A stretch of DNA of 32,000 nt from Erysipelotrichaceae bacterium MTC7. GTDB lineage: Bacteria; Bacillota_I; Bacilli_A; Erysipelotrichales; Erysipelotrichaceae. Below, one piece after another: positions 878 to 28,521 of the stretch. The position numbers and the translations under genes were made by a program. Every line of letters begins with the position of its first letter. Positions within the stretch are counted from its first letter, which is position 1. The notes beneath the pieces were generated by a model. The model saw only the letters and a list, made by a program, of their open reading frames with translations, made no database searches and was not told where the DNA came from. The stretch spans positions 12,336 to 44,335 of the forward strand of contig LVZN01000013.1 of the NCBI GenBank assembly GCA_001695645.1, written 5' to 3'.

Positions 878-2026
878 TTATTTCCCTCCATATTCATATA
901 CAAAAGCACGTGTTTTTTCATCCGTTACTCGTAAATCTTCGTAACTTGGATTTGCAATAAATTCCATCGTTTCGTATGCTTTTGCAATACACTCTTCAAT
1001 TTGTAAGAATGTAATCTTTTCATTTAAAAATAATTCAACCGCAACTTCATCTGCCGCATTTAAAATCGCACCGCTATTTCCACCACGTTTACCCGCTTCA
1101 TAAGCAAGGGCTAAAAGTGGAAAGCGTTCAAAATCCATCGCATCAAAGTGTAACATTCCTACCTTGATTAAATCAAGAGGTTCACTTTGCATAAGTGGTA
1201 GTCGATCAGGATAACTCAATGCATATTGGATAGGAATGCGCATATCTGCGGTTCCTAGTTGCGCTATAACAGAACGATCCACGTATTCAACAAGGGAATG
1301 TACAATACTTTCCTTGTTGATAATGGTATCAATATTCGCAAAGTCAATATCAAACAAGTAATGCGCTTCAATCACTTCAAATCCTTTATTCATCATCGTC
1401 GCGCTATCAATCGTGATGCGTTTTCCCATCGACCAATTGGGGTGACTTAAAGCATCTTTTACACTTACATCAACAAGTTGTTCTCGTGTTTTATCACGAA
1501 AACTTCCACCACTGGCACTAACGATAAGACGTTTCACTTCACTGGTTTTATTTCCTTGTAAGCATTGAAAGATCGCAGAGTGTTCACTATCAATTGGCAA
1601 CATCGTTCCCTTGAATTTTTTTAGTGCAGCTTTGACTAAGGGTCCTCCAGTCACCAAACTTTCTTTATTAGCTAAAGCTAAGACCATCCCTTTTTCGATG
1701 GTTAAAAGACTTGGTTTTAATCCAGCAAATCCAACAAGTGCATTAATTACCATATCTGCTTTTACATCCAACAATCCAAGCAATCCATCATCACCGTGAC
1801 CAAAATGCAAATTTGGATACATCGCTTGTAAAGCAAGTGCATCACTTTCCTTACGTACACTGTAGTATTTACAGGTTGGATAGATGCGAATGATTTTTTT
1901 AAGTTCTTCTATATTGTAACCAGCTGCCATGGCAACGATTTCATACATATTCGGGTGTCCAAGTACTACATCGATACTTTGTGTTCCAATCGAACCTGTT
2001 GCGCCAAGTAATATTATTTTTTTCAT
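878..2026 (-). CDS. dxr: 1-deoxy-D-xylulose-5-phosphate reductoisomerase (MEP pathway)
   Basis: 382-aa track ORF. N-terminal NADPH-binding LGATGSIGTQ, plus LANKESLV and DSEHSAIFQC motifs typical of Dxr. Conserved position after cdsA. Confidence 0.97.
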   Translation of the reverse strand: MKKIILLGATGSIGTQSIDVVLGHPNMYEIVAMAAGYNIEELKKIIRIYPTCKYYSVRKESDALALQAMYPNLHFGHGDDGLLGLLDVKADMVINALVGFAGLKPSLLTIEKGMVLALANKESLVTGGPLVKAALKKFKGTMLPIDSEHSAIFQCLQGNKTSEVKRLIVSASGGSFRDKTREQLVDVSVKDALSHPNWSMGKRITIDSATMMNKGFEVIEAHYLFDIDFANIDTIINKESIVHSLVEYVDRSVIAQLGTADMRIPIQYALSYPDRLPLMQSEPLDLIKVGMLHFDAMDFERFPLLALAYEAGKRGGNSGAILNAADEVAVELFLNEKITFLQIEECIAKAYETMEFIANPSYEDLRVTDEKTRAFVYEYGGK

Positions 2027-2795: not shown

Positions 2796-3485
2796 TTAGA
2801 CACCTCCAAAACGGCGTTCGCGATGATTGAATTCCTCAATGATTTCACGAAAGCGTGTTTCATCTAGTTCTGGCCATGCATAGTCAACAAAAACAAATTC
2901 CGCATATGCAAGTTGCCACAACAAGAAGTTTGATAAACGTTTTTCCCCACTGGTGCGAACCAATAGATCAATTTCTGGCAAACCATTGGTCATCATATAA
3001 GAACCAAACGTTGCTTCATCAATTTCTAAAGACTGTTTTCCGGCTAACACATCTTTTGCATATTGCTGTGCAGCCAGTGTAATTTCACGTCTTGAACCGT
3101 AATTGATGGCAATCACTAACTTCAAACCTGTATTATCAATTGTTTGACGTTCCGCTTCTAAAATGACTTTCACTGTATCACTAGGAAAGCGCTCAAGTTC
3201 ACCAATATGCATGACTTTTATATTATTTTCTTTCAATTCTTTAATGTATTTATTAAAGAACATTTTTGGTAATTTGCATAAATATTCAACTTCTTTGGGT
3301 GGACGTTTCCAGTTTTCTGTACTAAAAGCATACAACGTTAAGGCTTCGATTCCCAAACGGTTTGCTTCTAAGGCGATGGTGCGAATGGTCTCTGCACCTG
3401 CTTTATGTCCTTTTGTTCGTTCAAATCCTTTTGCTTTTGCCCAGCGACCATTTCCGTCCATGATCATTGCTACGTGTTTTACCAT
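2796..3485 (-). CDS. uppS: undecaprenyl (isoprenyl) diphosphate synthase
   Basis: Track ORF 2796..3512 trimmed to ATG at 3485 (MVKHVAMIMDGNGRWA...), preceded by GGAGGC SD. MDGNGRWA and RTSGExRxSNFLLWQ motifs. Confidence 0.95.
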   Translation of the reverse strand: MVKHVAMIMDGNGRWAKAKGFERTKGHKAGAETIRTIALEANRLGIEALTLYAFSTENWKRPPKEVEYLCKLPKMFFNKYIKELKENNIKVMHIGELERFPSDTVKVILEAERQTIDNTGLKLVIAINYGSRREITLAAQQYAKDVLAGKQSLEIDEATFGSYMMTNGLPEIDLLVRTSGEKRLSNFLLWQLAYAEFVFVDYAWPELDETRFREIIEEFNHRERRFGGV

Positions 3486-4976: not shown

Positions 4977-5312
4977 ATGCCAAGACCAAAAAAGACAAGA
5001 AATATCTGTGAACGTCCACGTTGTACAAGTTTTCGTCCTGACCTTCATCACGAGAAAGAAACACTCTTACCACTTGATGAATACGAAGTGATTCGTTTAA
5101 TCGACTATGAAGGCTTAAACCAAGAACAATGCGCGGCGCAAATGGGAATTTCAAGAACTTTAGTACAAGCGATGTATGCACGTGCACGTAAGCAAATTGC
5201 CATATGTTTGGTTGAGTCAACCGCCTTACGAATAAGTGATCATCGTGAAGTTTGCCCAAAAGTGCATAAAAAACGTCCTTGTTGTAAAAAAGGAGGAACT
5301 CAACATGAGTAA
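4977..5312 (+). CDS. DUF134/UPF0251-family small putative DNA-binding protein (sigma-70 region-4-like HTH) with N- and C-terminal Cys clusters
   Basis: 111 aa. MPRPKKTRNICERPRCTSFRP...LDEYEVIRLIDYEGLNQEQCAAQMGISRTLVQAMYARARKQIA matches my recollection of the UPF0251 pattern (MPRPxKxRxVC..P....F.P, DExExIRLxDxEGxxQEExA..M.VSRxTV). Cys at 11, 16, 93, 102 and 103. AAGGAG SD 8 nt upstream. Confidence 0.85.
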   Translation: MPRPKKTRNICERPRCTSFRPDLHHEKETLLPLDEYEVIRLIDYEGLNQEQCAAQMGISRTLVQAMYARARKQIAICLVESTALRISDHREVCPKVHKKRPCCKKGGTQHE

Positions 5313-6576
5313 TTGTAATAACGACTGTGGTTCATGTAGCGAAAACTGTAACGATAGAACCACACCGCAAAGTTTTTTAGAAGAACCAAATAAGAACGCT
5401 AACATCAAGAAAGTCATCGGAATCGTAAGTGGTAAAGGTGGCGTTGGAAAATCACTTGTCACTTCTCTACTTGCCTCAAGCATGCAAAGAAAAGGTTATC
5501 CAAGTGCGATTCTTGATGGAGATATCACAGGACCTTCCATTCCAAAAGCGTTTGGAATTAAAGATAAAGCCTATGGAAATGACAACGGTATGTTCCCTGC
5601 GACTTCTAGTACAGGTGTAAAACTCTTTTCAACCAACATGTTGCTTCAAAACGAAAGTGATCCAGTCGTTTGGCGTGGACCAGTTATTGCTGGAATGATC
5701 AAGCAATTCTGGCAAGAAGTACAATGGGGTGATGTAGATTACATGTTTGTTGATATGCCTCCAGGAACTGGAGATGTACCATTGACTGTCTTCCAATCTC
5801 TTCCTGTTGATGGAATTATCATTGTGACAAGTCCACAAGAACTGGTATCAATGATTGTTGAAAAAGCAGTCAACATGGCAAACATGATGCAAATCCCAGT
5901 TTTGGGTATAGTTGAAAATATGAGTTACTTCATTTGTGATTCTTGTAATAAAGAACACCATATTTTCGGTGATAGTCACCTTGAAGAAATTGCTGAAAAA
6001 TTTGGCATTGAAACCATTGCACGTTTACCGATGGACCCTAGCTTTGCAAAACTTGTTGACCAAGGAAGAATTGAAGATTTAAACGTGACCCAAATTCAAC
6101 CAATCACAACCATGTTGGAAACCGTTGAAAGCCTTCATAACAATAAAGAAGAAGCAACAGATCAACCAGCAACAAATATAACTGCAATTGTAGCAATACC
6201 ATACGATAAAGGACAAGTGTTCCAACATTTTGGTAAAACCAAAGAGTTCAAGATTTACACTGTCAAAAATAGTCAAATCACGAATCAAAGAATCATTTCT
6301 GCTGGTACAGCGGGACACCACGAACTTGTAAATGTATTACAAGCGCAAAATGTCGACACTTTACTTTGTGGTGGTATGGGTAATGGTGCCAAGGATGCAA
6401 ACGAAGCTGCAGGTATTACTGTATACACAGGATTTACAGGCAGTTGCGAACAAGCAATCGCCAAATACATAAGTGGAACTGCGACATTATCAAGTGATGC
6501 AACATGCGATCACCATGATCACGAACATCATCACGACCATGAGCACCAATGTAGTGGAAACTGCGCAAATCACTAA
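5305..6576 (+). CDS. fusion protein: Mrp/NBP35/ApbC-type P-loop ATPase + NifX/NafY/NifB-C-type (dinitrogenase FeMo-cofactor-binding family) domain + His-rich tail
   Basis: Track ORF 5236..6576 trimmed to ATG 5305 (AGGAGG SD 8 nt upstream; ATGAGTAA overlap with the upstream stop). N-terminal CNNDCGSCSENC. Deviant Walker A SGKGGVGKS (nt 5431..5454). DMPPGTGD. CxxC (ICDSCNKEHHIFG, nt ~5935). C-terminal domain VAIPYDKGQVFQHFGKTKEFKIYTV...LLCGGMGNGAKDANEAAGITVYTG (nt ~6181..6495). Tail CDHHDHEHHHDHEHQCSGNC (nt 6505..6573). Confidence 0.88.
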   Translation: MSNCNNDCGSCSENCNDRTTPQSFLEEPNKNANIKKVIGIVSGKGGVGKSLVTSLLASSMQRKGYPSAILDGDITGPSIPKAFGIKDKAYGNDNGMFPATSSTGVKLFSTNMLLQNESDPVVWRGPVIAGMIKQFWQEVQWGDVDYMFVDMPPGTGDVPLTVFQSLPVDGIIIVTSPQELVSMIVEKAVNMANMMQIPVLGIVENMSYFICDSCNKEHHIFGDSHLEEIAEKFGIETIARLPMDPSFAKLVDQGRIEDLNVTQIQPITTMLETVESLHNNKEEATDQPATNITAIVAIPYDKGQVFQHFGKTKEFKIYTVKNSQITNQRIISAGTAGHHELVNVLQAQNVDTLLCGGMGNGAKDANEAAGITVYTGFTGSCEQAIAKYISGTATLSSDATCDHHDHEHHHDHEHQCSGNCANH

Positions 6577-6647: not shown

Positions 6648-9600
6648 CTATTTTTTGTTTTTTCTAAATTTGTAAGTTCCTAATACAACACCTGCTGCTA
6701 GCAACAATAATGCTGCATATGCCATAACGTTTGTTGTATCACCTGTAGCGATTGAAGGTAATCCTAAAACAGTTTCTTCTTTCTTAGGTTCTTCTTTTGG
6801 TTTGTCTATTGAAGGTGATTGTGTACGAACATAAATTTCAATTACATTCTTTTCGCCATCAACGTCTAGTTTTGCTATTTCACCGTAAGGTGTAACAAAA
6901 CTTTGATTGTTTTCTAGTTTAACTGTATCTAAGAAATCTTTATAGTGTACGTGCCCAAATGCATCTGTAACGTAAAGTCCACTATATGCGTTTTCTGCAA
7001 TAACCTCTTTATTTGCTTCGTGCATTACACGAACAGTTGCATTTGTTTTTATACGAGCTACTTCAATAACAATTACGTTATCAGCATCTTCAACGCTTAA
7101 TGTAATCGTTGGACGTGTTCCCAGTACTTCGTACCCTTCTGGAAGAACTCCGTCAACAAATTGGTTGTAGTCCGATGGAGTAAATTCGTCATTCACGAAA
7201 AGATCAAAGAAATCTTTTGTTCCCAATTCTTTTTGTCCACCATCAGTAACATCAACAACCTTTACAGTAGCTGCAGTTGTCATTCGCTTGATATTAATTA
7301 TGATATCATTACCTGTTTCATTAAGTGTTATTGAATCACGAGGGTCAATTTCTTTATAACCATATGGAACTGCACTATCTACAAAATCATTGTATTGATC
7401 TGGTCCAAATTCATCAGTTGCTTTTAAGTTTTCATAGATTCGCGATGCCACAAATACTGGAGAATCAGTCGTAACATCATAAACAGTCACTGTCGCAAAT
7501 GTACTCTTTTTAGCAATATAAACAATAATTGTGTTCGCTTCCTCATTTTCAGACAAAGTAATAGATGAAGATGGATTTACCCCAACAACTTCATACCCTA
7601 ATGGTGTGTTTGCAGTAACAAAACTACCATAATCACTTTCACCAAACGTATCTGTAGCTTTTAATTCTGTAAATGCTTTGACTGCTGATCCGTCCGGAAT
7701 ATCAGTTGGATTTTGTTGGTCCTCAGTTTTTACCACAATTACTTTTGCAGTCGTATCCATTTTGGTGATAGAGAATCTAAACACATTCTTACTCGAGTCA
7801 GCTTGTAGTTCCCTTTCACCATCCCATCCATTAATCTTGTATCCAGGATATGCTTTAAGTAAATCTTCAATAACTGTTGAAGCATCAGTCAATGGATAGA
7901 ATTCTACAGCTGCTTGTAACTCTGTAATTTTTGCAGAGTCTAAAATTTTTCCATTATCAATATCGTCTAAGTGCATTTGAATTGTTACTGATGTTTTTGC
8001 CTTTGTCATGTATAGTTTAATGTGGTTATTTTCTGCACCACCTGGCACTAGGGTTGCATCTGTAACACCCGTAGTTACCAATACGTAATTTGGTTCTCTA
8101 GCTGCAATAGCATTTGCCTCAGCCAAGATTGTATTTGCAGCAATCACATCATTTACATGACCACTAATTTCAGTTGTTGTACCTACAACATCTCCACTAT
8201 CTATACTATCTCTATAAACAGTAATTTTATACTTTGTTGGAGCATTTGCTACAACGTGAATGACATTCGTATCAGCATTTTTTGTAAGGTTTATTGAAGT
8301 AAGCGTAGAGTTATCAATAACATGATTTGCATAGATGCCAGTTAGGAATGCTTCTAGTTCATTCACATAACTGTTCGCATCAAGTGCAGTTCCAACTTTA
8401 GCTTCTCCAGGTATGGTACCGATAGTCGCTCCATTTATTGCATTTTCGTGTAATACGATTTTATATCCAACTTTTTTTACATAATGAATACTTGGAGAAT
8501 TGTTGAAACTAGTTGTAGATTCAGATTTACCATTCAACGTGTAAGTAATACTAGCGTTTTTGTTTGAAACATATGTATCTTTCTCAAAAGTTGCTTTACT
8601 TTCATTAAATCTTACATTGAATGAGAATTCTTTAGTTGAACTATTTGCATCTCCAACTGTAATGTTGGCAGTTTTATTTCTTACATCAAGAGCGACACCA
8701 GCTGTCCCACTGTCAGAAACAATATCAAACTCATCAGTTACAACATCTTTAATTGACACATTCGTTGCCGTTGGAATCGTTGATAACATTTTATCAATAA
8801 TTGCTGTTATATCTTCAGAAATATCTTGAGGATTTGAGGTATATGCATAATCTGGCTTTGATGCCAAAGACTTAATTAGTGTTTCTGCCGCGGATCCCGA
8901 TTCTAAGCCATAACCTAAAGTAAATACTGTAGATAAAGATTTTAACTTATCACCAGCATCTTTTGTAGGTTTAATGTGATCACCAGAATATCGAATAGCA
9001 TATTTTTTTCCATCAATTACACAATCATGAGAAATCCATGGATCCCCTAAATGACGATTTGGCTCACCATCTCCTAAGATAAATGCGTAGTTATCCGCGT
9101 TTGTTTTACCTTTAAACCATTCATTAGCTTTAAGTACAGCGTAGTGCATATTTGTATTACCATCTGCATCACCAAATTGCGAATCTTCATCTTTTCCAAA
9201 ACTATATGCTTTGCTTGTAACATCTCCAGCAAATGTGATTAATTGAATAGTTACAGTTCTCGCCGGCTTAATATCTTTTAAAGCATTGGCTAATTTTTTC
9301 ACCGCATTTTTCGCATTTTTAAACTTGTTACCATCCATTGATCCTGAGCGGTCCACTATCAAAGCTACATTCAATGGTTTTGGTTTTTGTTGAATATCAC
9401 CACCTTTTACTTTAAAGGTAATTTTATATTCACCATTGTCTAGTTTTTCAAGTGATTTTTCCCACTCAATCCCATCAATTGTCGTCTCATTTGTATCAGT
9501 TGACGAAATTTTACTTGTGGCAACATCACCATCAGTTAGAGCAGTTGGTTTAAAATCTTTTGCCATTACTGTCATGTTTGAAACAGTAGTAAAAACTACA

Positions 9601-9659
9601 GCAAAAGCAATAAAAACAATGCTTAACGTACGTAAGGTTTTTCTTAACTTTTTATTCAT
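6648..9659 (-). CDS. large secreted, cell-surface adhesin-like protein: signal peptide + VWA (MIDAS) domain + Ig-like region + seven ~80-aa MucBP-like repeats + C-terminal wall-sorting-type signal
   Basis: 1003 aa. N-terminal KK..R + hydrophobic core + VMA|KD. MIDAS DRSGSMDG ... GNTN ... GDGEP. Repeats start at about aa 397, 476, 556, 637, 721, 796 and 872. C-terminus LGLPSIATGD-TTNVMAYAALLLLAAGVVLGTY-KFRKNKK. GGAGGA SD. Confidence 0.85.
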   Translation of the reverse strand: MNKKLRKTLRTLSIVFIAFAVVFTTVSNMTVMAKDFKPTALTDGDVATSKISSTDTNETTIDGIEWEKSLEKLDNGEYKITFKVKGGDIQQKPKPLNVALIVDRSGSMDGNKFKNAKNAVKKLANALKDIKPARTVTIQLITFAGDVTSKAYSFGKDEDSQFGDADGNTNMHYAVLKANEWFKGKTNADNYAFILGDGEPNRHLGDPWISHDCVIDGKKYAIRYSGDHIKPTKDAGDKLKSLSTVFTLGYGLESGSAAETLIKSLASKPDYAYTSNPQDISEDITAIIDKMLSTIPTATNVSIKDVVTDEFDIVSDSGTAGVALDVRNKTANITVGDANSSTKEFSFNVRFNESKATFEKDTYVSNKNASITYTLNGKSESTTSFNNSPSIHYVKKVGYKIVLHENAINGATIGTIPGEAKVGTALDANSYVNELEAFLTGIYANHVIDNSTLTSINLTKNADTNVIHVVANAPTKYKITVYRDSIDSGDVVGTTTEISGHVNDVIAANTILAEANAIAAREPNYVLVTTGVTDATLVPGGAENNHIKLYMTKAKTSVTIQMHLDDIDNGKILDSAKITELQAAVEFYPLTDASTVIEDLLKAYPGYKINGWDGERELQADSSKNVFRFSITKMDTTAKVIVVKTEDQQNPTDIPDGSAVKAFTELKATDTFGESDYGSFVTANTPLGYEVVGVNPSSSITLSENEEANTIIVYIAKKSTFATVTVYDVTTDSPVFVASRIYENLKATDEFGPDQYNDFVDSAVPYGYKEIDPRDSITLNETGNDIIINIKRMTTAATVKVVDVTDGGQKELGTKDFFDLFVNDEFTPSDYNQFVDGVLPEGYEVLGTRPTITLSVEDADNVIVIEVARIKTNATVRVMHEANKEVIAENAYSGLYVTDAFGHVHYKDFLDTVKLENNQSFVTPYGEIAKLDVDGEKNVIEIYVRTQSPSIDKPKEEPKKEETVLGLPSIATGDTTNVMAYAALLLLAAGVVLGTYKFRKNKK
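6822..8471 (-). repeat. seven tandem, diverged ~78-84-codon repeats inside the adhesin gene
   Basis: Recurring pattern at protein level: [TA]ATV.V.D....-(L/F).ATD.FG...Y..FV....P.GYE..G.....ITL.......I.I. Examples are ELKATDTFGESDYGSFVTANTPLGYEVVG, NLKATDEFGPDQYNDFVDSAVPYGYKEID and DLFVNDEFTPSDYNQFVDGVLPEGYEVLG. Confidence 0.7.
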
Positions 9660-12805: not shown

Positions 12806-14094
12806 AGTTTTTCGACAATGGTTTCCATTACGCTTAATGCCTGCTTTGCATAAGCAGCTTTACGTTCACGTTTTTTCACTTTTGTTTCCAGTTGCATAAT
12901 CCCAAAGTTTGCGTTCATCGGTTGGAAGTAGGCTGGATTGGTATGCGTTATGTAGTATGCTTGTGCACCAATGGCTGTGGTTGGTGGAAGTACAATTGGT
13001 TCTTCACCTTCCAGTAAACGTGCCATGTTGATTCCTGCAAGTGCTCCACTCGCTGTACTTTCTACATATCCTTCTACACCGCACATTTGTCCAGCGAAAA
13101 ATAAATTGTCACGAATTTGACTTTGGTATGTTTGCTTTAAACATTTCGGTGCACACATAAATGTATTACGGTGCATCACCCCATAACGAACAATCTCACA
13201 GTTTTCCAATCCTGGAATCATCTGTAAAATACGTTTTTGTTCGGGCCATTTTAAGTGTGTTTGAAACCCGACAATATTATACAGTGTTGCTGCTGCATCA
13301 TCCTGACGCAATTGCACAACCGCATACGGTTTATGGTTTTCATCTTTTTCCAACCCGACGGGTTTCATCGGTCCAAACAAAAGTGTTTTCTCACCACGCT
13401 TGGCAATCTCTTCAAATGGCATGCATCCCTCAAAGTATTTTTCATCTTCAAACTCTTTAGGTACGACCACTTCTGCGTGAATGAGTTCATTGTAGAAGTT
13501 TTTAAACTGCTCTTCATCCATAGGACAATTGATGTAATCAGCTTCTCCTTTATCATAACGTGATTTGTAATACGCCTGACTAAAGTCAATGCTGTCTTTT
13601 TCAATAATAGGTGCTGCTGCATCATAGAAATGTAAGTAATCTTGTTGAAACAATTCTTTGATACTTTCTGACAACCCATCACTTGTGAGTGGACCCGTCG
13701 CTACAATAACATTCCCTTCAGGAATTTCTGTCAACTCATCCTCAATGACTTCTACCAATGGGTGTTCTCTTAATGTTTTAGTGACAGAAGCACTAAAACC
13801 TGCACGGTCCACAGCAAGTGCGCTACCGGCAGGTACTTGGTGCTCGTCAGCTTTTTGAATGATTAAAGAGTCAAGCATGCGTAACTCTTCCTTCATAATT
13901 CCAACTGCATTTTCTAACGAGTTAGAACGAAGTGAGTTACTACATACAAGTTCAGCAAAATCATTCGTGTGGTGAGCAGGTGTCATTTTCTTTGGTCGCA
14001 TTTCGTAAAGTTTTACCTTGATCCCTCGTTTTACGAGTTGCCAAGTCGCTTCACTTCCTGCAAGTCCTGCTCCGATGACGATAACTTCTTTCAT
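12802..14094 (-). CDS. trmFO: methylenetetrahydrofolate--tRNA-(uracil-5-)-methyltransferase TrmFO (Gid)
   Basis: 430 aa. FAD-binding [11 protein letters not shown]. Length and position (after topA) are typical of TrmFO. Confidence 0.95.
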
Positions 14095-16406: not shown

Positions 16407-17138
16407 TTACAATTCGCGCAAACTTTCGTGATCAATAATAATATTCGCTCCTTCTTGAATGAGAACATTACAACCGCTTACTTGTTTTTCACTGTATGAA
16501 AATGGAAATACATAGACTTCTTTATTTAATTCGATTGCTTCATTTACCGTCAATAGCGTACCACTTCGTTTACTTGCTTCAATGACAACTACCTTTTCAC
16601 CGAGTGCTGCAATCAAGCGATTTCGTAAAGGAAAATGAAAAGAAAACGGTCGTGATCCGTTGGGGTATTCACTTATGAGTAAATGTTCTTTTTCAATTTC
16701 TTTATAAAGGAAGTGATTACACGCTGGATAATGTACATCAAGTCCACACCCCACAATCGCAATCGTACTACGTGTTGCCAAGGACAATTGATGAATGTAC
16801 CCATCAACTCCTTTTGCCAGTCCACTTACAGTTACGTAATCTTTACTTACATGTCGCAATAACGATTCACAGTTGTAGCGACCTTGACGACTCATTGCAC
16901 GTGAACCAACAATGGATAATTTGCGTTTTTCTAATAGCTTCAAGTCTCCTTTATAGTAAAGTACATACGGTGGTTGTTTTAACAATAAAAACTCTGGTGG
17001 GTATGCATCATCTAAAATAGTTATATAGGGATCTGGATAATCAATGTCACGATAGGCTTCATTATGTAAGATTGCTTTTTTAATTGCATGAACATCACCG
17101 TCGTATTTTACACTGTAATACAATAATCGTTTTCTCAT
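16407..17138 (-). CDS. dprA: DNA-processing protein A (DprA/Smf), compact 243-aa form
   Basis: Rossmann-fold core motifs SIVGSRAMS, GLAKGVDGYIH, GCGLDVHYP, RNRLIAALG and SGTLLTV. Conserved smf-topA adjacency. Confidence 0.88.
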   Translation of the reverse strand: MRKRLLYYSVKYDGDVHAIKKAILHNEAYRDIDYPDPYITILDDAYPPEFLLLKQPPYVLYYKGDLKLLEKRKLSIVGSRAMSRQGRYNCESLLRHVSKDYVTVSGLAKGVDGYIHQLSLATRSTIAIVGCGLDVHYPACNHFLYKEIEKEHLLISEYPNGSRPFSFHFPLRNRLIAALGEKVVVIEASKRSGTLLTVNEAIELNKEVYVFPFSYSEKQVSGCNVLIQEGANIIIDHESLREL

Positions 17139-17157
17139 GTTTTTACCTCTTTGTATA

Positions 17158-17170
17158 TATATATAGGTAA
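17158..17170 (-). promoter_or_regulatory. 13-nt box TTACCTATATATA upstream of dprA, identical to the box upstream of comGA
   Basis: Minus strand: ...CCTTTTTTC-TTACCTATATATA-TATACAAAGAGGTAAAAAC-ATG(dprA). The same 13-mer occurs at 27592..27604. Confidence 0.5.
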
Positions 17171-17199
17171 GAAAAAAGGAATATCCTGTGATATTCCTT
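17171..17199 (-). terminator. rho-independent terminator after rnhB
   Basis: Perfect 10-bp stem AAGGAATATC / GATATTCCTT with a 4-nt loop, followed on the minus strand by TTTTTTC. Confidence 0.8.
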
Positions 17200-17200
17200 A

Positions 17201-17824
17201 CTATTTGAAATCAAAATGCATTTGTAATGCTTTTGCTACAGGAGCATAACTGCGTCGATGAATCGGTAAAACGCCATAGGTTTCGAGAGCTTGTAAATGT
17301 TGTTTGGTTGGGTATCCTTTGTTTTTATCGAAGCCATACTCTGGATACGTTTCACTATACGCTTTCATAATACGATCACGAGTCACTTTGGCAAGAATAC
17401 TTGCTGCAGCGATATTCACACTTTTTTGATCACCTTTAACAATCGGTTCAACAACTTTTCCCTCAATTTGAAATTTCATCGCATCACTTAAGATGACATC
17501 AGCTATTTCACATTCTCTTGCAATTTTCATCATGGTTTGTTTAGTTGCTTCATAGATATTTAAGCGATCGATCGTTGCTTCATCAATAATTTCTATTTTG
17601 AAGTAAAGTGCGTGTTCTTGAATGTAATCAAATAACACTTCACGTTTCTTTTCACCTACTTTTTTTGAATCGTAAATATCAGGATGACTAAAACCTTTTG
17701 GAAAACAGACACCAGCCACAACCAATGGTCCAGCAAGCGGTCCGCGTCCTGCTTCATCAATTCCTATCACTTGTTTGTAACCTTGCTCCATATAGAGCGT
17801 TTCAAACTCATTCTTGCATTCCAT
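17201..17824 (-). CDS. rnhB: ribonuclease HII
   Basis: Track ORF 17201..17851 (TTG start) trimmed to ATG 17824 (MECKNEFETLYMEQGYKQVIGIDEAGRGPLAGPLVVAG), with GGGAG SD 7 nt upstream. GIDEAGRGPLAGP is the RNase HII signature. 17-nt overlap with rbgA. Confidence 0.93.
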   Translation of the reverse strand: MECKNEFETLYMEQGYKQVIGIDEAGRGPLAGPLVVAGVCFPKGFSHPDIYDSKKVGEKKREVLFDYIQEHALYFKIEIIDEATIDRLNIYEATKQTMMKIARECEIADVILSDAMKFQIEGKVVEPIVKGDQKSVNIAAASILAKVTRDRIMKAYSETYPEYGFDKNKGYPTKQHLQALETYGVLPIHRRSYAPVAKALQMHFDFK

Positions 17825-19449: not shown

Positions 19450-21492
19450 TTATTTCAATTTCAACATCATTGCATTAATTGCAACAATAATGGTACTCAG
19501 TGACATCAAAATGGCACCAAGTGCTGGACTTAATACAATTCCTAATGGTGCCAAGATACCAGCTGCTAGAGGTATAGCTATAATGTTGTAGCCTGCTCCC
19601 CACCATAGGTTTTGGACCATTTTACGCTGCGTGTTTTTGGCAAGTGATAAAAAATGTACAATGTCAGCTGGATCACTTTTTACCAGGACAACATCTGCAG
19701 CATCAATTGCTACATCAGTTCCTGCACCAATGGCAACACCGATGTCTGCGCGAACCAAACTTGGTGCATCGTTTACACCATCACCAACCATCATCACAAC
19801 ATGACCGTTTGCTTTGTATTCTTTTACAATTTGCTCTTTGTTTTCCGGTAACAGTTGTGCATGTACATCATTGATTCCTACTTGTGCTGCAACTACATTG
19901 GCAACTTGTGTGTTATCTCCAGTCAACATCACAGGTGTAATGCCTTCGTCAATAAATTGTGCAACCGTTGTTTTTGCATCTGGCTTAATTTGGTCTCCTT
20001 GCGCAACAAGACCAACATTTACATCATCAACCAATACGAAACTAATGGTATTCCCTTGTTTTGACAAGGATGTTACCAACGCTTCATCAAAATCGATTTG
20101 CTGTTTACTCATATAACTGACACTAACAATCCTAACTGTTTTACCCGCAAGAACACCTTGCAACCCAATTCCTGGTAGGTTTTGGATATCTTGTGCTTTG
20201 GTTAATGACAATTGAAGTTCTTTAGCTTTTTGTAATATCCCAGTAGCAAGTGGATGGCTTGAACCCATTTCTAAACTTGCTGCATACATCAGTACCTGTT
20301 CATCTGTATAGTTTGAATCAAATGATTGAAACGCGTTTACCGCAAAATTCCCTTCAGTTAGGGTTCCAGTTTTATCCATTACAATGATATCCACCTTTTT
20401 CGCAATCTCTAAAGCTTGTCGATTTTTAATCAACAAACCATTTTTCGCACCAAGTGAGGTAGACCTTGCAGTCACTAACGGAATGGCTAACCCGAGTGCA
20501 TGTGGACAAGCTATAATGAACACCGTCACCATGCGTTCTAGTGCAGCACTAACATCATGATCAACCAAAAGCCATACAATAAAAGCACCAATTCCAAATA
20601 CTAGTGCTATGTAAAACAACCAACTAGCCACTTTATCAGATAGGGATTCCACTTTGGATTTATCTTGTTGGGCATGTGCAACTAAATTCATAACCTGTGC
20701 TAGATAGCCCGATTCGCCTGTGCCTGTCACCTTAACAGTTAACGTACCAGATCCATTAATCGAACCACCGATCACAGTATCATTTTCACGTTTTTCTACG
20801 GCTTTTGCCTCTCCCGTTACCATGGATTCATTGACGCTTGTATCTCCACTGACAATGATGCCATCGGTTGGTATATTTTCTCCAGGCTTAACCAACACCA
20901 TGTCACCAACATGTACTTGCGCTAAAGGAATCACACTTGTTTTGCCATCTGAATTTACACGCGTGGCATCACTTGGCAGAAGTTCTGCCATTTTCTTCAA
21001 TGCATCTCCTGCATTTTGAATTGCATTCATTTCAATCCAGTGTCCCAGTAACATAATAATAATTAAAGTTGCTAGTTCCCAGAAAAAATCCATAACGTGT
21101 GCATCACTATGCAAAATGTGATTCATAAAAAACGCATATACACTATAGATATACGCTACAGAAATACCAAGTGAAATTAACGTCATCATCGCTGGCTGTT
21201 TCATTTGCAGTTCCATCTTGGCACCTTTTAAAAATGGCATACCACCATAAAAAAATAACACTGTCGCAAACAGTAAAACCACCCACTGTGAACCAGAAAA
21301 CGATATTTGAAACGGCAATTTTGCCCCCATCAAAGAAGACATTAAAAATATTGGGATGGAAAGAATAATAGAAACGATAAATTTTTGTTTTAAGTTTCCC
21401 ATATGCATTGAGTGGTCCATCATTTGTCCACCATTTTTGTGCATTTCATGTTCCATCGTCTCGTGATGATCATGCATTTCATGTTTGTCCAT
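19450..21492 (-). CDS. copB: copper-translocating P1B-type ATPase, CopB-like (CPH motif, His/Met-rich N-terminus, no HMA domain)
   Basis: Track ORF trimmed to ATG 21492 (AAGGAGG SD inside the track's upstream extension). N-terminus [34 protein letters not shown] motif [34 protein letters not shown]. Confidence 0.93.
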
Positions 21493-21587
21493 AAAATCCT
21501 CCTTTCCCCTCATACGACTATCTATATAGTAGCATTTGCCCTTAGTTAAGCAAGCAATACACTTCTATAACTGGGAATCAGATTGGA

Positions 21588-24015: not shown

Positions 24016-24036
24016 GTTTTTTACTTGACACCTCTA
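24002..24036 (-). terminator. strong rho-independent terminator of the comG operon
   Basis: 12-bp perfect stem AGAGGTGTCAAG / CTTGACACCTCT. The comGG stop sits at the loop edge. TTTTATTG follows. Coordinates are +/-1 because my homopolymer counts here disagree with the track frame by 1 nt. Confidence 0.75.
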
Positions 24037-25655: not shown

Positions 25656-26684
25656 TTACATCCTTTCTAATAACTGTAAAGGCAATAACATTACTTGATA
25701 AACACAAATGACCATGACACCAACAAAACTATACGATATGATTTGTAACACCATATTAAATTTCTTAATTTGCATCTCCCACCTTCGTTGTTGTTCATCA
25801 CGATAAGAAATCATCATTTCACGAAACGCACCTGTTGAAGAGCCAATGGTAAAGTGAAGCTTAAATCGTTTCGAAATGCGTGGGTTTTCTTGCAAGACCA
25901 CAAACAAGTCTGCACCTGCATTCAAACCATTGTAAATGGATTGACTCACACTATGAAACAACGGTTGTTTTCGCATATCTTGTAAAAACAAAAAGGCTTG
26001 TCTGGTACTTAGCCCATGTTGATCAAGTTCAATTAGATAATGTGCTAGATAAAACGACATCCATTCTTTCACAAGGGGACTGTGTGTTAGTCCAAAAGCA
26101 CCAACAACACGCATCACTTTGGAACTGATCTGACATAACCCAAACAATAGAAAAAGACATACGATTCCAATAACCATCAAATTGGCCAATTGTTGAATCA
26201 CACCAACCAGTTGAAACATGTAATTTTGTTCGATTTCAAAGTGTTGCACCAACTGTGGAATCACATACCCTGAAAAGATATAAACGGTAAAAAATGAGAC
26301 CAGTAAAATAAAGAAGGGATAGATACTTTTCTTTATCATTTCTTGCTTTAGCTTTTGTTCAAACATGTACATGGAACTTGCACAAGCAATGGCATTTGCA
26401 AGACTTGTCATTTCTAAAAAGAAAGTTACAAACACTTTCATTCGCCCTCTACATGCATCAATGACCAATTGTTCTATGCGTATACCATCATCAAGCATTT
26501 GAAACACTTGAAAACTATCTTTTTCTAACAGTTGCAACGCTTGCTTAAGTGGATATCCTTGTCTTAATAAAGAAGCAAAATACATCCATTCATTTTGCGA
26601 CATTTGCAATACACGAGACTTACGAAATCCAATTTCTTTGTTGAGCCAAGCGAATTTTGTCTTCCATGGTTTGATAGGTTTCAT
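25656..26684 (-). CDS. comGB: ComGB / PilC-GspF-family polytopic platform protein
   Basis: 342 aa from ATG 26684 (the track starts one codon earlier at TTG). GGAAGGAGG SD 8 nt upstream, inside comGA. Duplicated GspF-like architecture with TM segments. Confidence 0.88.
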   Translation of the reverse strand: MKPIKPWKTKFAWLNKEIGFRKSRVLQMSQNEWMYFASLLRQGYPLKQALQLLEKDSFQVFQMLDDGIRIEQLVIDACRGRMKVFVTFFLEMTSLANAIACASSMYMFEQKLKQEMIKKSIYPFFILLVSFFTVYIFSGYVIPQLVQHFEIEQNYMFQLVGVIQQLANLMVIGIVCLFLLFGLCQISSKVMRVVGAFGLTHSPLVKEWMSFYLAHYLIELDQHGLSTRQAFLFLQDMRKQPLFHSVSQSIYNGLNAGADLFVVLQENPRISKRFKLHFTIGSSTGAFREMMISYRDEQQRRWEMQIKKFNMVLQIISYSFVGVMVICVYQVMLLPLQLLERM

Positions 26685-27579
26685 CAAGCAAGCCTCCTTC
26701 CAATAAGATTTGGATGTCTTGTTCTTCCATTAATTCATAAATGCAAATGCGTCGTTCTTCATCTTTTGCTTTGTAAATACGCTGCGAACTTAAGCCAAAC
26801 AACGTTTCTTTTAAATCCAGAACACTTACCCCAAAATCCAACATTCGTTTGATGACATCTTTACAACTTTTTGCATGAATGGTAGATAAAACCAAATGAC
26901 CACTTAATGCTGCAGTGATTAACTGTTTTGCGGTTTTACCATCACGAATTTCACCAATCATAATGACATCAGGATCATGGCGTAAGATTTGTTTAATTCC
27001 TTCTTCATACGTGAAATCAATCTTTTCATTAATCTGCAGCTGTAAATACGTATTGGATTGTATTTCAATAGGATCTTCAAGCGTGATGACATGCTTGTTT
27101 TCTTGTAACGCTAAAGCTTCCAACAACGCATGCAGTGTGGTGGTCTTTCCTGCGCCAGTTGGACCAGATAGTAGTATTAACCCACTGGAGCGTTTTAGCC
27201 AGTCATAAAAAATTGCAACCTGTGCTTCTTCTTTAGTCAAATCCTCAATTGCAAATGCTTGGTGGTTATTCAAAATGCGCAAGACTCCAGTCTGTAGTTG
27301 CATTGTTCGCAAATACGAAAAACGAAACTGTAATTCTTTTTGCTTATAAACATAACTAAAATTTCCACTTTGTGGCAATAAGGAGTTTCCTAAGTCTAAA
27401 TTGGCTGTAAATTTCAAATAATGAAAAAGACTTTCATCAAGAAATTTATGTTCCACTTCCTGAATTCCATAAATACCACGAATTCGAACGTACAAACGTT
27501 TGTTTTGCAGAGTGAAATGGACATCGGTTGCTTGATAAGATTCAATAAGTTCAAGTAATAGTTTTAATTTCTTTTTCAT
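26620..27579 (-). CDS. comGA: ComGA / PilB-GspE-family secretion ATPase
   Basis: Track ORF (GTG start) trimmed to ATG 27579. Walker A GPTGAGKTT. LEDPIE (Asp box). Walker B-like DPDVIMIGEIRD. His box STIHA. Confidence 0.92.
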   Translation of the reverse strand: MKKKLKLLLELIESYQATDVHFTLQNKRLYVRIRGIYGIQEVEHKFLDESLFHYLKFTANLDLGNSLLPQSGNFSYVYKQKELQFRFSYLRTMQLQTGVLRILNNHQAFAIEDLTKEEAQVAIFYDWLKRSSGLILLSGPTGAGKTTTLHALLEALALQENKHVITLEDPIEIQSNTYLQLQINEKIDFTYEEGIKQILRHDPDVIMIGEIRDGKTAKQLITAALSGHLVLSTIHAKSCKDVIKRMLDFGVSVLDLKETLFGLSSQRIYKAKDEERRICIYELMEEQDIQILLEGGLLDETYQTMEDKIRLAQQRNWIS

Positions 27580-27591
27580 GTGCACCTCGTT

Positions 27592-27604
27592 TATATATAG
27601 GTAA
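27592..27604 (-). promoter_or_regulatory. 13-nt box TTACCTATATATA upstream of comGA, identical to the box upstream of dprA
   Basis: Minus strand: ...TTAGAAGCCTGCGT-TTACCTATATATA-AACGAGGTGCAC-ATG(comGA). It lies between the upstream gene's terminator and the comGA SD. Confidence 0.5.
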
Positions 27605-27625
27605 ACGCAGGCTTCTAAAATCCCT

Positions 27626-27653
27626 AAAAAAAACTCACTTCATTGAAGTGAGT
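27626..27653 (-). terminator. rho-independent terminator after the MBL-fold hydrolase gene
   Basis: 9-bp stem ACTCACTTC / GAAGTGAGT with a 3-nt loop, followed on the minus strand by TTTTTTTT. Confidence 0.8.
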
Positions 27654-27658
27654 CACAT

Positions 27659-28312: not shown

Positions 28313-28462
28313 TTATTTCTTTTCTCTGTGTTCAGTTTTAGCGTTACATTTTGGACAGTATTTTTGAGCCACCATACGTTCTGGTTGCGTCTTTTTATTT
28401 CTTGTGTTGATGTAATTTTCCATCCCACATTTTGTACATTTCAAAGTAATACGATCTCTCAT
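28313..28462 (-). CDS. rpmG: 50S ribosomal protein L33 (zinc-ribbon form)
   Basis: Not in the ORF track (49 aa). My translation is MRDRITLKCTKCGMENYINTRNKKTQPERMVAQKYCPKCNAKTEHREKK, with CxxC...CxxC and a TAGGAGGA SD 7 nt upstream. The track ORFs 28274..28486(+) and 28395..28580(-) are shadows of it. Confidence 0.93.
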   Translation of the reverse strand: MRDRITLKCTKCGMENYINTRNKKTQPERMVAQKYCPKCNAKTEHREKK

Positions 28463-28521
28463 CTGAAAATCCTCCTAACTCTTTAGCGTTTCCTATTGTA
28501 TCATATACATTTAGTAAAAGT

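Follow-up and report, generated by a model that had tools for sequence, protein, structure and literature searches.

The two identical 13-nt boxes, TTACCTATATATA, that lie upstream of comGA and dprA in Erysipelotrichaceae bacterium MTC7 are probably the -10 and discriminator parts of two SigH/ComX-type promoters, judging from their sequence and surroundings. The window, i.e., the whole 32-kb stretch of DNA that was analysed, holds exactly two copies of TTACCTATATATA, both on the minus strand. No further copy was found in the 32 kb when up to 2 mismatches were allowed, and the comGA and dprA transcription units are the sole carriers of the box. What is conserved at these two genes throughout the family is not the exact 13-mer, however, but a two-block element, which recurs at other competence genes of relatives and is most likely a diverged member of the SigH/ComX promoter class. 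The sequence-only reading from which this work started had suggested a competence-specific sigma factor or a regulator in a lineage whose competence control was undescribed. Such control is indeed undescribed in this lineage, and our literature search found no paper on competence or SigH control in Erysipelotrichia, nor transcriptome or genetic work on MTC7, but it appears to be of a known kind.

The comGA copy of the box (27592-27604, minus strand), proposed as the -10 region and discriminator of the comG operon promoter, precedes a 319-aa comGA (26620-27579, minus strand; ATG at 27579-27577) that opens a comGA-GB-GC... operon reaching approximately position 24021. Pfam identified ComGA (T2SSE, 1.6e-69), then ComGB and pilin genes downstream of this first box, and a metallo-beta-lactamase-fold (MBL) hydrolase encoded upstream of comGA. 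The dprA copy (17158-17170, minus strand) precedes a 243-aa dprA (16407-17138, minus strand; ATG at 17138-17136); DprA was confirmed by PF02481 (8.5e-64), and the preceding gene encodes RNase HII (rnhB). Pfam thus agreed with the gene calls of the sequence-only reading, and the flanking sequences quoted there, as well as the restriction of the 13-mer to these two genes, proved exact. The reading had also placed each box between the terminator of the preceding gene and the Shine-Dalgarno sequence (SD), which was confirmed. The sequence contains an intrinsic-terminator-like hairpin and T-run of the MBL gene at 27632-27654 and a terminator-like hairpin of rnhB at 17176-17199, both on the minus strand; rnhB ends with TAG at 17203-17201. 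Since such hairpins end both preceding genes, the boxes are confined to the 35 to 50 nt left before the SD, which is GAGGTG (27583-27588, minus strand) at comGA and AGAGGT (17145-17150, minus strand) at dprA. From the 3' end of the box to the ATG there are 12 nt at comGA and 19 nt at dprA. This position would fit the -10 region of a dedicated competence promoter and is in line with the very short leaders that had been predicted.

The most diagnostic part of the element, a -35-like block, had been overlooked. At dprA, AGGATAT (17181-17187, minus strand) is located 14 nt before CTAT (17166-17163), the in-phase -10 core, and TTAC (17170-17167), with which the box begins, forms the end of the spacer; the whole site reads AGGATAT-TCCTTTTTTCTTAC-CTATATAT, in phase. 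This AGGATAT is also part of the rnhB terminator hairpin, within its 3' arm, and an identical AGGATAT was found at dprA of the two Breznakia loci L083 and L085. From the -10 core toward the predicted start site there is a (TA)6 tract (17154-17165, minus strand). At comGA, the AGGAWWW-like block recognised from the sequence and by a matrix is AGGGATT (27619-27625, minus strand), which precedes TTAC by 14 nt and CTAT by 18 nt. Either CTAT (27600-27597) or, if phase with the -35 block is kept, TTAC (27604-27601) is the candidate -10 core of comGA. In most related comGA upstream regions, the equivalent AGGATTT comes after the terminator T-run. A sigma-70-type promoter was found at neither the comGA nor the dprA box, while the nearby topA has TTGACA-17-TATACT.

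The statement that the box is unlike every known competence element was too strong, in view of the geometry of Listeria SigH promoters, the alignment with the streptococcal cin-box and the sites of bridging relatives. The SigH consensus of Bacillus subtilis and B. thuringiensis (DBTBS) is RNAGGAWWW, N11, RNNGAATWW (PMC8510167), and the content of the blocks and their spacing are alike here. The dprA block ACAGGATAT agrees with RNAGGAWWW at 8/8 specified positions; TTAGGGATT of comGA is a partial match, with AGGG for AGGA and T at the R position. Both window sites carry TACCTATAT, in which A, T, W and W of RNNGAATWW are matched while G-A is replaced by C-T and R by T, so that both fall outside the consensus. 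The CTAT core differs from GAAT in precisely the pair of positions by which SigH and ComX boxes are defined. In Bacillus, moreover, SigH leads to sporulation entry and ComK to competence, whereas the element described here is placed directly on late competence genes.

The closest parallel in geometry is found in Listeria monocytogenes, in which RNA-seq revealed SigH-dependent promoters at comGA, comEA and coiA (PMC4754846), which control the comG operon and other late com genes. In these promoters, 11 nt separate the -35 block (AAAGGATTT or AAAGGAATT) from a -10 block of 7 nt, and the distance from the gene is 19 nt (comGA), 22 nt (comEA) and 81 nt (coiA) (PMC4754846). The Listeria comGA promoter, 19 nt from its gene, reads AAAGGATTT-N11-GAAGAAT (PMC4754846), and the predicted dprA site of the window, ACAGGATAT-N11-TACCTATAT, is of equal geometry. 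The two systems differ in the -10 core, which is CTAT here (NWAT in the family) and GAAT there, and in the comGA spacing, which is 4 nt longer here; dprA is not among the SigH-dependent units reported for Listeria (PMC4754846). In streptococci, the ComX (SigX) cin-box, TTNCGAATAA / TACGAATA at -10 (PMC9300618), is an extended -10 element that precedes every late com operon, including comG and dprA. TACCTATA agreed with TACGAATA at 6/8 positions and TTAC-CTAT-A with TTNC-GAAT-A (TTNCGAATAA) at 6/9 specified positions, CT standing here for the central GA, which leaves the window sites outside the cin-box definition. Some relatives come closer to it, with TACGTATA at comGA of L004 (7/8), GTGAATATA in L010 and TGGAATATA in L026. 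In contrast to the element described here, streptococcal promoters lack the AGGA -35 block, and ComX and SigH boxes have been described as too distant for interchange. Finally, comG, comE and further late com genes are driven by a SigH-like factor in the non-sporulating Bacillota Staphylococcus aureus and Lactobacillus sakei (PMC3486894, PMC3364868); S. aureus additionally uses ComK1 and ComK2, SigH and ComK acting jointly (PMC9300618).

The conservation of the element was investigated in 26 upstream regions of comGA, taken from the matches listed in a ComGA-alignment scan of genomes and from exact-protein look-ups, and in more than 25 of dprA, for which metagenomes were scanned with a DprA alignment and look-ups were added. 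Approximately 45 related comGA and dprA upstream regions contained AGGAWWW, 14 nt, an NWAT-type core and then a few bases to the SD or start codon. The family core is written NWAT because relatives range over GAAT, CAAT, AAAT, CTAT, GTAT and ATAT. The comGA regions show the terminator T-run, AGGATTT (AGAAAAA in Coprobacillaceae), 14 nt and G[T/A/C]ATATA adjoining the SD. In 23 dprA loci (MTC7, Breznakia and 21 metagenome contigs), the rnhB-dprA gap measures 31-63 nt and contains tAGGAWWW, immediately behind the rnhB stop, 13-15 nt and [C/G/A]WAT(W)(W), followed by the SD or directly by the ATG. Several related dprA sites, L107 and L105 among them, have a perfect SigH consensus, as in TTAGGAAAA-TGAGATTTTGC-GGTGAATAA of L107 (N11 spacer). 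The search in related genomes that had been suggested thus recovered the two-block element at both genes.

The promoter also seems to constrain the choice of the rnhB stop codon. This stop is TAG at 14/22 dprA loci (L090-L109, L012, L083, L085 and the window, at 17201-17203), compared to 18% of the long ORFs of the same loci, and it overlaps AGGA at 11/22. In L103-L108, dprA lacks a ribosome-binding site, and 6-9 nt separate the -10 block from the ATG (e.g., GAATAATGTATTGGATG), which suggests that these dprA mRNAs are probably leaderless. A different arrangement was observed in the Breznakia-like L118 (~2885-3000), in which AGGATAA-N14-TTAT lies ~85 nt upstream of comGA and the leader contains an inverted repeat, GTCACATAAA...TTTATGTGAC, that was not observed in the other genomes.

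We then scored sites with a two-block matrix that was seeded from the SigH consensus and trained only on dprA sites from outside MTC7, after dropping the 2 columns confounded by the rnhB stop. The window dprA site, AGGATAT-N11-TACCTATATA (gap 11), scored 12.7. Ahead of comGA, the matrix selected the site closest to the SD, and p<0.05 per 100 nt was reached in 12/24 genomes. The comGA scores exceeded those of 201 intergenic regions upstream of other genes (Mann-Whitney p=1.4e-5), and a score of at least 10 was reached in 8/26 comGA regions compared to 6% of other upstream regions (binomial 1e-4). When ~1.3 Mb of loci were scanned on both strands (~2.6 Mb of strand), the intergenic sites followed by a gene within 45 nt included, beyond the training set, seven comGA sites, comGC in three genomes, a 102-aa SSB gene and a ComK-family gene. 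The notion of a competence-specific promoter type is strengthened by these sites ahead of comGC, ssb and comK in relatives. The motif is nevertheless low in information, with 347 matches scoring at least 10 over the ~1.3 Mb (both strands), and false matches arise at efp and an MBL gene because AGGA is SD-like. Since the matrix is weak and SigH-seeded, we counted enrichment as evidence and single matches not. One such accidental match to the minimal AGGAWWW-N14-NWAT pattern was rejected as a promoter: AGGATTTTCAGATG (28449-28473, minus strand) belongs to a small rpmG (L33), located between the PBP and MBL genes of the window, and comprises its SD and start.

Three of the recovered genes deserve a separate description. 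The comGC matches (17.5 in L012 at 2701, 15.0 in L063 at 11858 and 12.1 in L006 at 12018) form a second SigH-like site within the comG operon, directly before the major pilin gene, which suggests a separate boost of pilin transcription. On the minus strand of L102 (1192 of the reverse complement), AGGAATA-N12-TGACAATACT and an SD precede a 102-aa, SsbB-like SSB with the N-terminus MFNQIVIVGK, and this ssb is likely a further regulon member in a relative. In L109 (~1315-1800, plus strand), a 142-aa ComK-family ORF (PF06338, 3e-9) directly follows the SigH-like site AGGAATT-N10-TAAGTATTAA. When 5.8 billion proteins were searched, no homologue was returned except the protein itself.

ComGA and DprA of the window show 100% identity to MTC7 proteins. 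The closest relative of MTC7 is an unclassified Breznakia (ComGA 80%, DprA 82% identity), the next standing at ~59%. The gene order from comG to dprA is preserved in Breznakia. Between rplS and lepB, MTC7 carries a P-type ATPase gene (19450-21513, minus strand) that is missing at that position in both Breznakia loci, L083 and L085, indicating a lineage-specific insertion. Two further genes of the window were recorded, namely one for a 1003-aa protein with VWA as its sole recognisable domain (6648-9659, minus strand) and, on the opposite strand, one in which a ParA/NUBPL P-loop is fused to a Nitro_FeMo-Co domain (5236-6576, plus strand). In contigs of 99%-identical strains, the comGA box is unchanged. 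The sister species has TTTACCTATAAATA (GTTTACCTATAAATAAG) at comGA and TTCCTATATATA (TCTTCCTATATATATAC) at dprA, and its two promoters have just CCTATAWATA in common. At 54-59% protein identity the 13-mer is absent, and in Breznakia sp. PF5-3 neither gene carries one. From the sister-species variants and its absence in PF5-3, the exact 13-mer is therefore shallow and lineage specific.

Among the scoring comGA sites of the family, the gap between the blocks is 11 nt in eight, 12 nt in three and 15 nt in two. The latter are those of MTC7 and its sister species, with AGG(G)ATT 18 nt before CTAT as opposed to 14 nt at dprA, and the comGA gap becomes 11 nt only when TTAC, the first four bases of the 13-mer, is taken as the core. 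This 4-nt offset may mean that the two boxes are read four bases apart, that comGA is read without a -35 contact, similarly to cin-box promoters, or that the comGA promoter is weakened. A related pattern was observed in L112 and L116, which come from one sample and have an in-phase TAAC at comGA and TAAT at dprA, TAAYGTTATA being common to both. Comparison of 20-nt core-anchored segments in six genomes gave 10.7 positions of agreement between comGA and dprA of one genome and 7.8 across genomes, and the within-genome value was reached by 0/265 derangements. In L012, GCGTATT(T/G)A is found alike at comGA, comGC and dprA, and L118 and L114 have TATATAT in common. These data hint that the -10 preference drifts by lineage, in a set of six genomes to which base composition could contribute. 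A more far-reaching possibility, which we consider tentative and rather doubtful, is that the competence sigma of Erysipelotrichaceae reads an extended -10 of ~10-13 nt that drifts by lineage, all competence promoters of one genome moving together, with GAAT having become CTAT in MTC7/Breznakia and comGA having left the -35 spacing. If true, this lineage would offer a natural example of joint change in the specificity of a sigma factor and of its promoters.

We also asked how often such a box would be shared by chance. A shuffle specific to TTACCTATATATA, for which 0 copies are expected, is the wrong null, and the window contains 99 distinct repeated 13-mers compared to ~55 in shuffles; a repeated 13-mer by itself has little meaning, and the unusual feature is its placement. 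The comGA/dprA pair was top among the 91 pairs of 60-nt upstream regions of the window (13 nt; runner-up, 9 nt), and a 13-nt match was found in just 1/479 cross-genome comGA x dprA promoter pairs. TA runs alone account for matches of up to 10 nt between unrelated promoters; given two runs of at least (TA)4, agreement of 5 nt on their left has a P of ~0.007. From the pair ranking, the cross-genome pairs and this P value, a chance origin of the shared box is therefore estimated at roughly 0.2-1%, before correction for the free search by which the box had been noticed.

The main competing explanation is that the boxes are two ordinary AT-rich sigma-A -10 regions on TA runs, in weak promoters with a -10 only, and that their TTACC match is accidental. 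The surplus of repeated 13-mers and the 10-nt matches that TA runs produce among unrelated promoters would be expected in that case, and so would the restriction of the sister species to CCTATAWATA, the loss of the 13-mer at 54-59% identity and the 4-nt difference in distance to AGGA. We nevertheless consider such a coincidence unlikely, given the first rank among the upstream pairs and the single 13-nt match in 479 cross-genome pairs. Moreover, the family keeps the GG of AGGA at both genes, which is not a sigma-A feature, neither site shows a sigma-70-type match, and an equal element stands ahead of comGC, ssb and comK in relatives.

A less probable alternative, already raised by the sequence-only reading, is that the box is an operator bound by a ComK-like activator or by a repressor rather than by a sigma factor. 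ComK boxes are AAAA-N5-TTTT dyads upstream of the promoter. This pattern matched twice in the window, at 13226 and 26511, near neither gene and neither box, and the dyad symmetry of the box itself is limited to the TA run, so that the operator reading gained nothing from symmetry or from a ComK box. The identity does exceed the minimal -10 core by 4-5 nt on its upstream side, one related contig (L109) contains a ComK-family gene, and SigH and ComK act jointly in S. aureus (PMC9300618). However, the L109 protein has no detectable relative in 5.8 billion proteins, and the overlap of the box with the -10 position would leave a repressor site as the only possibility. What the family conserves is a two-block promoter, with no separate site, which makes an operator very unlikely.

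Still less weight is given to the (TA)n tract as a slipped-strand switch that would vary dprA expression among cells or strains. A 99%-identical strain, represented by two independent assemblies, has (TA)5 (L001, L002, L088) where the window has (TA)6, but this is a single length difference that may be neutral or stem from the assembly. Because the -10 core starts upstream of the tract, the -35 to -10 spacing is unchanged, and the comGA tract showed no length variation among the same strains; thus, the difference at dprA probably does not act as a switch. Least credible is translational control with TTACCU as an anti-SD sequence (UUACCU/AGGUAA at dprA). Six bases are complementary at dprA and five at comGA, but the dprA fold (-3.9 kcal/mol, z = -0.6) is no better than shuffles, the comGA fold leaves the SD uncovered by TTACC, the structures are not kept in the sister species, Rfam gave no family match in the whole window, and TTACC would be untranscribed if the box is the -10 region. 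The anti-SD hairpin was rejected on account of these weak and unconserved folds.

For the preferred reading of the two boxes as -10 regions of SigH/ComX-type promoters, we infer a SigH/ComX-like sigma in MTC7, its reading of both sites and the position of the transcription start. A sigma of this family, together with RNA polymerase, would contact AGGAWWW as the -35 block and TTAC-CTAT-ATA as an extended -10. With a start point a few bases ahead of the SD, the leaders would measure ~10-25 nt. Because terminators insulate each unit from the preceding gene, the comG operon and dprA would be silent unless the competence sigma is made. A phmmer search for a sigH/comX gene, with SigH and ComX sequences as queries, returned only RpoD-sized proteins, and no small sigma gene, among the ORFs of ~50 kb of MTC7 and of the relatives' loci.

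Erysipelotrichaceae are common gut bacteria for which few genetic tools exist. A SigH/ComX-type element on comG and dprA, and in relatives on comGC, ssb and comK, points to one master sigma, and overproduction of the competence sigma is a standard route to natural transformation in such species. The element can serve as a search pattern for the remaining regulon and, as a small natural data set, may help to follow the change in -10 preference of a sigma factor between lineages.
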